Source: a virus
Lineage: Duplodnaviria; Heunggongvirae; Uroviricota; Caudoviricetes
Length of the DNA: 5,783 bases
Direction: 5' to 3' (one strand)
Virus record (IMG/VR): IMGVR_UViG_2778261643_000011
The stretch's first letter is position 1. Each line of letters opens with the position of its first letter. The notes beneath the pieces were generated by a model that was not told where the DNA came from, searched no databases, and saw nothing but the letters and a program-made list of their open reading frames with translations. The position numbers and the translations under genes are program-made. Shown here piece after piece: positions 3,263 to 5,488 of this stretch.

Positions 3263-5277
3263 GAGAGCTGTGCTATGGATCTGTTTGCAGTGGAATTGAA
3301 GCCGCGAGCATTGCATGGGAACCGTTGGGTATGCGTCCGGCGTGGTTTGCTGAAATCGAGCCTTTTCCATCTGCCGTTCTTGCGCACCGCTGGCCCCATG
3401 TCGCGAACCTTGGCGACATGACAAAACTCGCCCAAAAAGTCCAGGCCGGAGAAATTGAAGCCCCTGATGTGCTCGTCGGGGGTACGCCTTGTCAGGCATT
3501 TAGTATCGCGGGATTAGGTGGTGGGCTTGATGATGAACGCGGCGCGCTAACTTTGAAGTATGTGGAGCTTGCAAATGCAATTGACGACAAACGGGCTGAG
3601 TCATTTCTCAAACCAGCAGTTATCGTCTGGGAAAATGTCCCAGGAGTCTTGTCATCGGCAGATAACGCCTTCGGATGTTTCCTTGCCGGATTGGCTGGAG
3701 AAGATGCGCCATTCGAACCAGGTGATCGACCTGAATCAGGAAAAAGTAACGCGTTCTGGCGGTGGGATGTCAAAACCGGTTGCCATGCTCCAAAGTGGCC
3801 GCAGTGTGGTTGTATTTATGGACCGCAGCGAAAGGTGGCCTGGAGAATCCTTGATGCCCAATACTTCGGAGTGGCACAACGACGCCGACGCGTGTTTGTT
3901 GTCGCAAGTGCTCGAACAGACCTCGATCCCGCAACGGTACTTTTTGAGTTCGAAGGCGTGCGCCGGAATATTGCGCCGAGCAGAGGCGAGGGGAAGGAAA
4001 CTACCAGATATACTTCAAACATCGCTATCAGAACTTGCGATGATACAAACATAATTGCCATGGCACATGGGCAAGGAGGGGCTGAGATAAAAACCGATAA
4101 TTCGGCACCAACTTTGACATGTAACCATGAAGCACCAATTGTATTGCTCGGCGACGGTAGAATGCGCCGTCTTACCCCTGTCGAATGTGAAAGGCTGCAA
4201 GGTTTTCCTGATGGGCATACGTTGATCCCGACGGAAAAGCGTAAAAAAGTTAATTCAGATGAACTGGCATATCTTCGCAATCACTATCCAGATTTAAGCG
4301 AAGAAGAGGCCGCGATGCTTGCAGCTGACGAACCGCGTTACAAAGCGATCGGCAATAGTATGGCAATACCAGTAATGCGCTGGATTGGCGATCGGATTAC
4401 TAAGGCCGTATGTCGGCAGAAAGAAGGAAGTGAAACAAAAGAGCGAAAAGTTAAACCAGCGGCAGAATTCGAACGGTCCATATTCAAATGGGCTGGTGGA
4501 AAATTTGGTGTTCTGGAACAAATCTTTCGCTATTTGCCAGAAGGGAAGCGCCTGATTGAACCTTTCGTTGGTGGCGGAGCTGTCTTCATGAATGCCGGAT
4601 ACCAGGAAAATCTGCTAAATGATGTGAATGCTGACCTGATTAACTTTTACAAGACTCTGCAACGCGAGGCGAATTCACTTATCACTCTGGCACATCGTTT
4701 CTTCCAGGACTACAACACACAGGAAGGATACCTGGCAGTACGGAATGCGTTTAACAAACAAGTCTATGATGATTTACATCGCGCAGCGGCGTTTTTGTTC
4801 CTGAACCGACATTGTTTTAACGGATTGACGCGTTACAACCAGGCCGGTGAGTTCAATGTCGGTTATGGGAAGTATAAAACTCCGTATTTCCCATTACAGG
4901 AGATGGAAGCCTTCCTCGGTGCGGAAGGGCGGTCTGAGTTTGTATGCGGTGATTTTGCAGCGGTGATTGAAGCTGCCGGAGAAGGAGATGTCATCTTTTG
5001 CGATCCGCCGTATGAACCGCTTCCAAATACAGAGGGATTCACGAACTATTCCGGTCATGACTTTAAGTTTGAAGAGCAAAAACGCCTGGTGTCTCTGTTG
5101 ACGGATGCTCATCGTCGAGGTGCAAATGTTCTCATTACTAACAGTGGCGCGCCAAACATCAGAGAGCTTTATCATGACAGTGGCTTCAGAGTGGAACCTC
5201 TTTTTGCCAGACGTTCTGTGTCTTGTAAGGGAGACACTCGTGGTGTTGCTCATGACGTTATAGCAATATTGCTCTAA
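3259..5277 (+). CDS. dmt: bifunctional DNA methyltransferase: N-terminal C5-cytosine MTase fused to C-terminal Dam-family N6-adenine MTase
   Basis: 672-aa ORF with GTG start overlapping the upstream stop and a GGAGAGG element upstream. N-terminal half carries C5-MTase motifs: motif I variant [10 protein letters not shown], catalytic PCQ (nt 3487-3495), ENV (nt 3631-3639), [10 protein letters not shown], and C-terminal GNSMAIPV. C-terminal half from about aa 407 is Dam-like: [17 protein letters not shown], and catalytic DPPY (nt 5002-5013). Double stop TAA TAA. Confidence 0.9.
4492..4499 (+). other. Chi recombination hotspot octamer (GCTGGTGG)
   Basis: Exact GCTGGTGG on the plus strand inside dmt, formed by the codons for W-A-G-G of the Dam-domain KWAGGK motif. 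Confidence 0.6.
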
Positions 5278-5284
5278 TAAATTT
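5268..5284 (+). promoter_or_regulatory. exact match to P1 C1-repressor operator consensus
   Basis: ATTGCTCTAATAAATTT is a 17/17 match to the recalled consensus. It overlaps the dmt stop codon and is followed by a partial inverted copy (AAATTTATTAGtgtAAT, 5279-5295), suggesting a bipartite operator. Confidence 0.55.
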
Positions 5285-5297
5285 ATTAGTGTAATAT
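5269..5297 (+). promoter_or_regulatory. predicted sigma70 promoter overlapped by the operator
   Basis: -35 TTGCTC (5269-5274), 17-bp spacer, -10 TAATAT (5292-5297); predicted transcription start near 5304. By-eye prediction only. Confidence 0.35.
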
Positions 5298-5303
5298 CGA
5301 CTC

Positions 5304-5488
5304 AATGAATCGTGATTTATAGAGCGATTTAGCTGTTAGCCGCGACAGGCGCGGCGGCAAGTATGGCGGGGTAGTGACTCCTTCCCCATCATGACGCCGA
5401 GTTGCCAGGTTGACCATACGCCTAAGTGGCAACACCGAAGTGCGTTACGAGCTTCCAGTTTGCCCATCTTCGGGTGGGCGTTTTTTTT
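5304..5488 (+). ncRNA. candidate structured noncoding transcript (about 185 nt) ending at an intrinsic terminator
   Basis: Region between the predicted start and the terminator has no ORF with an RBS. The only ATG-initiated frame (5391-5528) runs through the terminator hairpin. Contains GC-rich helices: GCCGCG/CGCGGC (5339-5355), GTATGG/CCATAC (5361-5366 with 5414-5419), GTTGCC/GGCAAC (5401-5406 with 5428-5433). It could instead be a 3'UTR of dmt. Confidence 0.25.
5462..5488 (+). terminator. Rho-independent terminator
   Basis: GCCCATC-TTCG-GGTGGGC forms a 7-bp stem (one G-U pair) with a UUCG tetraloop, followed by G and eight T residues (5481-5488). Confidence 0.8.

Follow-up and report, generated by a model that had tools for sequence, protein, structure and literature searches.

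What is transcribed from the repressor-controlled promoter that lies at the end of the methyltransferase gene dmt in P1-like phages? The question is raised by positions 5268-5488 of a 5,783-nucleotide stretch of viral DNA (Caudoviricetes; IMG/VR record IMGVR_UViG_2778261643_000011), which is called the window here at its full length. A preliminary description of this segment, made from the sequence, had proposed an immunity-controlled small RNA gene that belongs to no recognised family. In this study, we find that the control elements are already known and that the RNA is related to the long form of the small RNA DicF and has a new body; a single leader controlled by the phage repressor C1 carries a conserved structured domain (module A), one of several alternative bodies, and a second conserved unit (module B) that resembles the messenger part of transfer-messenger RNA (tmRNA, or SsrA). 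Module B lies outside 5268-5488 and yet shares its promoter and its hairpin, and it would be the real novelty beside the known promoter. Over its 3' 580 bases, the window shares 96.7% identity with phage P7, 93.7% with phage P1 and 100% with an Escherichia coli P1-like plasmid, and the long open reading frame (ORF) whose 3' end is at 5277 is dmt, with its stop codon at 5275-5277.

The control elements lie at the end of dmt.
5268-5295, no strand assigned: bivalent C1 operator, composed of Op72a (plus strand, 5268-5284) and Op72b (inverted, 5279-5295), overlapping the dmt stop codon.
5269-5297, plus strand: promoter P1ban, with -35 hexamer TTGCTC (5269-5274), 17-nucleotide spacer and -10 hexamer TAATAT (5292-5297).

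The asymmetric 17-base-pair operator consensus ATTGCTCTAATAAATTT occurs without mismatch at 5268-5284, where the chance expectation is 0.01 per window. The preliminary description was therefore correct in reporting an exact copy, but it missed a second, inverted site that overlaps the first on the minus strand (5279-5295, two mismatches). Its claim of a C1-gated promoter was also borne out, as the hexamers and their spacing are identical to those of the annotated sigma-70 promoter P1ban in NC_005856. The operators are annotated as Obana and Obanb (formerly Op72a/b, "controls expression of ban") in P1 and as Op(ban) in P7 (NC_005856, AF503408). Compared with Op72ab and its promoters P1ban and P2ban in these two phages, the window has the same 17-base-pair operator, overlapping inverted second site, hexamers, spacing and position across the dmt stop codon, in flanks that are 93.7% (P1) and 96.7% (P7) identical; there is no substantial difference, only a copy of the insertion sequence IS2 in the leader of this window. 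The operator and promoter are thus the known bivalent Op72ab/Pban with which the ban operon begins, and no control element here is new. A generic sigma-70 scan did not call P1ban, because its -35 hexamer matches at just three of six positions. According to the annotation of NC_005856 and AF503408, C1 would repress Pban and induction would relieve this repression; from that annotation and the position of the operator it would follow that the RNA is produced solely upon inactivation of the repressor. A third C1 operator, ATTGCTCTAATAAATAT, is present with one mismatch at 1992-2008, upstream of the ORF 2336-3262 that precedes dmt, and may gate both that ORF and dmt; in the P1 and P7 records, the gene before dmt is hrdC.

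Transcription probably starts near 5304, which would give an RNA of 185 nucleotides up to the end of the U-tract at 5488, with a stem-loop near either end.
5306-5331, plus strand: 5'-terminal stem-loop of the leader (minimum-free-energy fold), found in all P1-type copies and in the P1 type only.
5462-5488, plus strand: GC-rich hairpin with UUCG loop, followed by U8; intrinsic-terminator-like 3' end (terminator scan) and also the helix that precedes module B.

The ORF search of 5304-5488 gave no credible or conserved ORF. Since the T-run at 5481-5488 is six, seven or eight long in close relatives, four ORFs of at least 30 amino acids that cross it would be frameshifted there, and a fifth, on the minus strand at 5286-5435, overlies a hairpin with non-triplet indels. 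For these two reasons the ORFs of the region are not conserved, and the earlier view that no ORF is translated stands, all five being disrupted in relatives. The 3' end looks like a UUCG-loop terminator, as had been described: the hairpin was the one terminator-like site found by the scan, with the stem GCCCAUC/GGUGGGC at 5462-5468/5473-5479 (placed at 5461-5480 by the scan) and T8 at 5481-5488, and a P1-like contig (L095) carries a compensatory variant of the stem, GCCCACC/GGUGGGU. ARAGORN found no transfer RNA (tRNA) or tmRNA in the window and Rfam gave no family for 5304-5488 even at E<=10; a tRNA or tmRNA gene within this segment is thereby ruled out, in agreement with the statement that it is not tRNA-like.

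In the P1 and P7 records, tRNAs, the tci genes and ban are annotated under the same operator, 2.4 kb downstream. It follows that part of the transcription must pass the hairpin, and that 5304-5488 is the leader of an operon and not a free-standing small-RNA gene. What remains of the small-RNA proposal is a gated, untranslated and structured RNA; the independence of the gene does not.

A sensitive DNA search with 5300-5720 revealed two independently conserved pieces, modules A and B. Module A and the segment that follows it comprise the following elements.
5338-5433, plus strand: module A, a conserved pseudoknotted domain (homology to the region upstream of DicF, and covariation).
5339-5344/5350-5355, plus strand: hairpin hp1.
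5355-5358/5396-5399, plus strand: closing stem P2.
5361-5366/5414-5419, plus strand: pseudoknot of GUAUGG with CCAUAC, the latter lying in the loop of hp3.
5368-5371/5384-5387, plus strand: hairpin hp2, hypervariable.
5401-5407/5427-5433, plus strand: hairpin hp3, with an invariant loop of 19 nucleotides.
5434-5461, plus strand: P1-specific body, a candidate seed at the place that DicF occupies in the Qin prophage; it has the YCAGUUU motif of DicF-type variants.

Homology to module A (about 5340-5437 of the window) extends at about 82% identity to lambdoid phages and prophages. Of 5426 complete E. coli genomes, 4433 gave matches to a 421-base query in which module A is contained, and module A is also where the majority of the listed matches lie. 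In the Qin prophage of strain K-12, module A lies between ydfC and dicB/dicF (locus L003, 1501-1597) and ends 25 nucleotides before the Rfam match to DicF. Its structure was derived by hand and then tested on an alignment of 50 distinct sequences, from a sample of 150 instances (113 distinct) in at least 120 viral contigs, with pairing partners slid by one to three columns as the control. The proposed pairs are formed in 94% of the cells, compared with 30-57% when slid, and compensatory pairs are found in P2 (UA 44, CG 5), in the pseudoknot (UA 41, CG 6, UG 3) and in hp3 (UA 38, CG 12), although they represent few independent events and hp2 is misaligned in the P1-type rows. The stem of hp2 has been rebuilt from unlike sequences, e.g., GGGG/CCCC, CUGGG/CCCAG and CCAGGUG/CACCUG. 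An outer helix P0, GUUGUGGC/GCYRCAAC, occurs in the lambdoid copies and not in the P1 type. The covariation analysis that the preliminary description had suggested thus supports the fold, and its claim of a structured RNA is upheld on this ground; the evidence for structure is covariation and not the folding energy of a single sequence, which for the 187-nucleotide RNA is not exceptional (z = -1.6).

These observations bear on the simplest explanation of the segment, namely that it is a plain 3' untranslated region and terminator of dmt followed by an untranslated operon leader, with insulation as its only role. The hairpin does lie 185-210 nucleotides after the dmt stop codon, and the ordinary single-sequence folding energy would suit such a region. 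However, promoter and operator separate dmt from the RNA, and module A, with compensatory substitutions, is conserved in P1-type plasmids and lambdoid prophages alike although these are unrelated, which is not expected of a passive spacer. We therefore regard this explanation as very improbable.

What follows module A is far less constant. A hairpin with a T-run is found within 40-82 nucleotides 3' of module A in all 113 distinct copies, and the body in between is classical DicF in most of them; there are at least seven other versions, making at least eight bodies in all. On the Rfam model of DicF (RF00039, threshold 48 bits for the 52-nucleotide DicF), the Qin copy scores 76.7 bits; three of the bodies score as DicF or DicF-like and some do not score at all, the variant copies giving 38.8-58.9 bits. 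The P1-type body with its terminator, ...CCGAAGUGCGUUACGAGCUUCCAGUUU-GCCCAUCuucgGGUGGGC-U6-8, is a further version, and the P1-like contig L095 has yet another body. The motif YCAGUUU is common to most bodies. The layout of a pseudoknotted conserved domain directly before an intrinsic terminator is a classic one for riboswitches, and module A might accordingly be taken for an aptamer that senses a ligand or signal and sets termination at 5481-5488. Against this, the terminators and linkers differ wholly between variants while module A is constant, so that no conserved anti-terminator pairing is possible, and no Rfam riboswitch family matches; we give this idea very little credence.

The comparison with DicF is more informative. 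The 190-nucleotide long form of this RNA is reportedly associated with Faubladier 1990 as well as with Ragunathan 2023. In confirmation of earlier work, Northern blots show two species of DicF: one of 53 nucleotides, with a 5' end created by RNase E, and one of 190 nucleotides, with a 5' end created by RNase III (bioRxiv 10.1101/2023.04.14.536235); processing by RNase E to a short Hfq-binding RNA has been published (bioRxiv 10.1101/2023.04.14.536235; PMC5069750). Counting 190 nucleotides back from the DicF terminator leads to the 5' edge of module A, and the 190-nucleotide DicF is accordingly module A plus a spacer plus DicF. The two RNAs share a homologous 5' domain of about 100 nucleotides, the order of domain, short body and intrinsic terminator, their length (185 nucleotides in the window, 190 in DicF) and their place in a repressor-controlled phage operon with genes beyond the terminator. 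They differ in that the P1 body is unrelated to DicF, with no match to RF00039 at E<=10 and no complementarity to ftsZ; in that the 5' end would come from the promoter in P1 and from RNase III in Qin; and in the P0 helix of the lambdoid copies, which is not in the window. The homology of module A to the region upstream of DicF explains why the P1 record labels the RNA a "dicF-like region". The preliminary description, which had recognised no RNA family, was thus right insofar as Rfam is empty for 5304-5488, but the P1 record already says "dicF-like" and the 5' 100 nucleotides are homologous to the 5' part of the 190-nucleotide DicF. The P1 body itself is rejected as an orthologue of DicF on account of the missing RF00039 match and the missing complementarity to ftsZ.

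By analogy with Qin, the direct product of the repressor-gated promoter in P1 would thus be an equivalent of the long DicF species. The reading that we favour, and to which we give about an even chance, is a C1-gated small RNA of the DicF type that is itself the primary transcript, while read-through supplies the operon. According to the P1 annotation, C1 occupies the bivalent Op72ab in the lysogen and blocks P1ban; once C1 is inactivated transcription would proceed from about 5304. A share of the transcripts probably ends at the UUCG hairpin and U8, giving the RNA of about 185 nucleotides. With the P1 promoter directly before module A, the long form would arise as a primary transcript and would not need the RNase III cut seen in Qin. 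RNase E may then release an RNA of about 50 nucleotides ending in the terminator, by analogy with DicF, and this RNA might act by Hfq-assisted base pairing, with its targets set by the body at 5434-5461. Polymerases that pass the hairpin would continue into module B, the tRNAs, tciABC and ban.

Several results weigh against a DicF-type small RNA in P1. There is no match to RF00039 in the window at E<=10, so the P1 body is not a member of the family; its duplex energy with the ftsZ leader (-60 to +40) is no better than that of shuffled sequences (z = +0.9), in what is a weak test, as DicF itself reaches just z = -1.0; and neither tmRNA nor the downstream module is notably complementary to the body. 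The P1-family sequences are too alike to reveal constraint on the body, and the folding energy of the single sequence, as mentioned above, is unexceptional. As ban must be expressed through this terminator, termination cannot be complete. Phage D6 keeps the hairpin without module A, which fits a role of the hairpin in the downstream module. In the literature searched, we found no description of a P1 small RNA from Pban or of module A, and no P1 transcript data.

The leading rival to the small RNA is that module A acts in cis. Like the put RNA of phage HK022, it would modify the polymerase so that the terminator and later hairpins are read through, allowing expression of dicB in Qin or of the tRNAs, the tci genes and ban in P1. 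Module A always lies 40-82 nucleotides upstream of an intrinsic terminator that must be passed for genes of the same operon to be expressed, and in P1 it comes directly after the promoter, as put sites do. Furthermore, its most conserved part is the 19-nucleotide loop locked in the pseudoknot, with the body freely swapped, which suits a domain that binds a protein or polymerase better than it suits a seed. The putL and putR sites share with module A the arrangement of a structured nascent RNA between a phage early promoter and terminators to be read through, a likeness by analogy only. They form two stems without a pseudoknot and bind the zinc-binding domain of the beta' subunit, whereas module A has four or five helices and a pseudoknot, and by comparison with the published description there is no likeness to put RNA in sequence or structure. 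In Qin, module A comes after ydfABC and about 800 nucleotides away from the promoter; Ragunathan et al. did not detect a long read-through transcript of dicBF (bioRxiv 10.1101/2023.04.14.536235); and phage D6 has the same downstream modules and does without module A. The case for an effect of module A on the polymerase is a positional argument, and we consider such an effect rather unlikely.

Phage D6 also bears on the 3' end. It has only 5459-5717 in common with the window, with unrelated sequence in the place of module A. The base of the hairpin is therefore the exact point at which the homology begins, and the shared sequence continues through module B; in every other phage family, a long helix directly adjoins the conserved UUUUCG at module B's 5' end. 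The hairpin at 5462-5488 might thus belong to the downstream, tmRNA-directed module as a 5' clamp or processing helix, with 5304-5461 serving as leader or scaffold and the terminated form being a by-product. However, a short helix of 7-8 base pairs followed by 6-8 U marks a terminator rather than an RNase III site, and the lambdoid prophages have module A, body and terminator without module B. We judge this assignment of the hairpin unlikely. Nevertheless, because the hairpin travels with module B in D6, which is without the upstream RNA, it is not certain to be the end of the transcript. In D6 (locus L236, 620-1200), about 600 nucleotides of different, apparently non-coding and hairpin-rich sequence replace the operator, the promoter and module A.

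Returning to the leader as a whole, with the C1-gated small RNA as the preferred reading of its first part, the question becomes what lies beyond the hairpin. Module B is organised as follows.
5489-5549, plus strand: 5' arm, complementary to E. coli tmRNA, followed by an invariant UAAAU just before the tag.
5550-5582, plus strand: tmRNA-like tag frame GCA AAC GAT GAT CTG ATG ATG GTA GCG GCC TAA, encoding ANDDLMMVAA and a stop.
5583-5670, plus strand: 3' part, consisting of a hairpin with the stop codon in or near its loop and then two H-type pseudoknots.
5596-5601/5613-5618 with 5607-5610/5627-5630, plus strand: pseudoknot PKa.
5640-5646/5661-5667 with 5632-5635/5647-5650, plus strand: pseudoknot PKb.

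In a pattern scan, at least 120 viral contigs contained module B. By BLAST it is present in Vi01-like, N4-like (ECBP1) and T1-like phages and in phages of Cronobacter, Serratia, Klebsiella and Aeromonas, besides the P1-like ones. It is nearly always unannotated and often stands beside tRNA genes on the same strand, and its neighbours vary from phage to phage. In these contigs the tag peptides come in 16 variants, all of ten amino acids and all from a frame that starts GCA AAC; ANDDLMMVAA, ANDDVVLMAA, ANEEMYLAVA, ANDEQFLAVA and ANDNTFLAVA are examples, to which 11 others are to be added. None of the tag peptides was found in the literature searched. The tag frame is open in 30 of 30 distinct nucleotide versions, compared with 1 of 30 and 6 of 30 in the other frames, and it ends in UAA or UAG; third codon positions vary most, and 42% of single-step differences are synonymous where 23% are expected. 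As the sequences are related, these figures for the frame are descriptive only. Ordinary translation of the tag is ruled out by the lack of a start codon and of a Shine-Dalgarno sequence and by an in-frame UAG eight codons upstream. The fold of module B is also conserved. Because the RNAalifold consensus was poor, structures were set by hand and their pairs then counted; in 58 sequences, 89.7% of the cells are paired, compared with 40-50% when slid, and there are 129 cells with double changes, compared with 37 in shuffles.

Module B resembles tmRNA in several respects. It has the GCA resume codon with UA at positions -5/-4, supplied by the invariant UAAAU; a tag of ten codons that begins with AND and ends in Ala-Ala (ANDDLMMVAA in the phage, ANDENYALAA in E. 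coli tmRNA); a stop codon in or next to a hairpin loop; and pseudoknots 3' of the tag. It also gives weak matches to the coding-piece part of permuted tmRNA models. The Rfam model tmRNA_permuted scores 26 bits on it (E=0.02), below threshold, on the strength of AAAUGCAAACGAU...GCGGCCUAA, and across module B loci the Rfam tmRNA models give 21-33 bits against a threshold of 47. However, it lacks the acceptor stem, the T-arm and the CCA of tmRNA; it has two pseudoknots after the tag where tmRNA has three or four, and a hairpin in place of PK1; and its 5' arm is antisense to the tmRNA of the host. We know of no tmRNA whose 5' arm is antisense to host tmRNA. The nearest forms for comparison are two-piece and permuted tmRNAs and the RNA of mycobacteriophage DS6A, which consists of the tRNA-like domain only.

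No tRNA-like domain (acceptor stem with G3:U70, T-arm and 3' CCA) was found in module B, and ARAGORN found no tmRNA in the window, in P1, in P7 or at 58 further module B loci. Such a domain was also sought upstream, downstream, within the loops of the long "bracket" hairpins described below and in a recurrent neighbour module, with nothing consistent emerging. The terminator hairpin was considered as the closed acceptor stem of a permuted tmRNA and rejected, since elsewhere its place is taken by unrelated long helices, no T-arm precedes it and there is no G3:U70. Likewise, the segment ...CAGCUCCAC... of the neighbour module, which resembles the 3' end of tmRNA, is a covarying hairpin with an ACGAAAC loop and not an acceptor end. 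An exhaustive survey of ssrA in RefSeq viruses in 2014 listed mycobacteriophages only, plus Bacillus phage G and DS6A, and the 2025 paper on the tmRNA database describes pipelines for which the tRNA-like domain is required.

The 5' arm suggests a target for module B. The invariant arm has three blocks that pair in collinear order with nucleotides 68-104 of E. coli K-12 tmRNA. The first, GGUUUUCGUC (5492-5501), pairs with GACGAAAAC, which holds tag codons 3-5; the partner of GCGAC (5509-5513) is GUCGC, a stretch across the resume codon; and UUUGCGG (5514-5520) pairs with CCGCAAA, where PK1 ends. As energy-based duplex scans against tmRNA were dominated by GC-rich windows, they were replaced by alignment scores compared with dinucleotide shuffles. 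The reverse complement of the arm reaches a Smith-Waterman score of 35 against the real ssrA, compared with 17.4+-2.7 for the shuffles, none of 1000 reaching 35, and seven divergent phage types give z values from 3.6 to 9.2. For 60 of 62 representatives, the arm aligns best with tmRNA from nucleotide 68 to 104-113, and for the other two the best alignment starts at nucleotides 75 and 80 of the same stretch; in all 62 the arm scores higher against tmRNA than against the downstream sequence of its own module. The arm is the top-scoring region of the window against tmRNA on either strand. Since a stretch of dmt (4621-4690) scores 32 against nucleotides 212-244 of tmRNA, which we take as chance, the P-value from a single sequence should not be over-read, and what carries weight in the antisense case is that precisely these bases are conserved, together with where their target lies.

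On these grounds we propose, tentatively and with rather less than even confidence, that module B is a copy of the messenger part of tmRNA without its tRNA domain, which may anneal to host tmRNA and block or replace its template. The duplex formed by the arm would reach from the end of PK1 over the frame-setting region and the resume codon and through tag codons 1-5, and module B would offer its own resume codon and the tag ANDDLMMVAA some 12-22 nucleotides beyond the duplex. No phage-encoded anti-tmRNA or trans-acting tag template was found in the literature searched.

The remaining features of the leader lie at the 3' end of the window.
5670-5720, plus strand: 5' arm of a "bracket" hairpin, CACUACAGGUAAGGGCGCU, with part of its loop, cut by IS2; the hairpin is complete in P1 (locus L001, about 3467-3557).
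5721-5783, no strand assigned: end of a copy of IS2 inserted in the leader of the ban operon, 97-100% matching IS2 ends.

Long bracket hairpins of the form CACAACAGGUAAGAGCAUU...GAGUGCUCUUUCCGUUGUG, with the consensus CACAACAGGUAAGRGC...GCYCUUUCCGUUGUG, separate RNA modules and tRNAs in these phages, and the modules are often enclosed by GUUGUGG...CCACAAC. P1 has brackets after module B (L001, 3467-3557) and after trnT (about 3898). In a T1-like array (L010), brackets alternate with enclosed modules, and arrays of this kind, which contain several other conserved modules, end in tRNA genes. The brackets look like processing (RNase III) sites or recombination joints for the shuffling of RNA cassettes. 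The RNase III cut that creates the 190-nucleotide DicF maps to a bracket or GUUGUGG-type junction.

The homology of the window to P1 and P7 ends at 5720 and IS2 begins at 5721, so the insertion breaks the leader 430 base pairs downstream of the operator and promoter, within the loop of the first bracket hairpin. In this plasmid, a polar effect of the IS2 copy on the tRNAs, tciABC and ban is expected. The tRNA cargo of the ban leader differs between P1-like phages: P7 (L002, 4354-4440) and several P1-like contigs (L006, L023 and L095) carry extra genes for tRNA-Ser(UGA), tRNA-Tyr and tRNA-Arg, which P1 is without. A sub-threshold Rfam match to STnc100 (33-43 bits, threshold 47) lies upstream of tciA/terB in P1 (L001, 4482-4601) and P7 (L002, 4550-4665). 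The STnc100 family is also found after DicF, in Qin as in other lambdoid prophages, so that the ban leader of P1 has more than one RNA module in common with the dicBF region.

For the biology of P1, the long and puzzling leader of the ban operon thus becomes a string of discrete RNA modules, in which 5304-5488 is a concrete candidate for an induction-specific small RNA. DicF is one member of a cassette system with swappable bodies behind a constant 5' domain. That domain, module A, is a conserved pseudoknotted structure matched in most of the E. coli genomes searched and a carrier of interchangeable bodies, whose function is now testable, a stability element, a processing scaffold or an antiterminator being the candidate roles. 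If its antisense arm is functional, module B would be the first RNA of a virus with the ribosome-rescue system as its target, and it would explain why the tag frame is maintained in phages without a tRNA-like domain. If the proposed mechanism is true, P1-, Vi01-, N4- and T1-like enterobacterial phages, in at least 120 viral contigs, would block or re-template trans-translation in their hosts, and the tmRNA of the host would become part of a chimeric two-piece tmRNA that writes a tag chosen by the phage.

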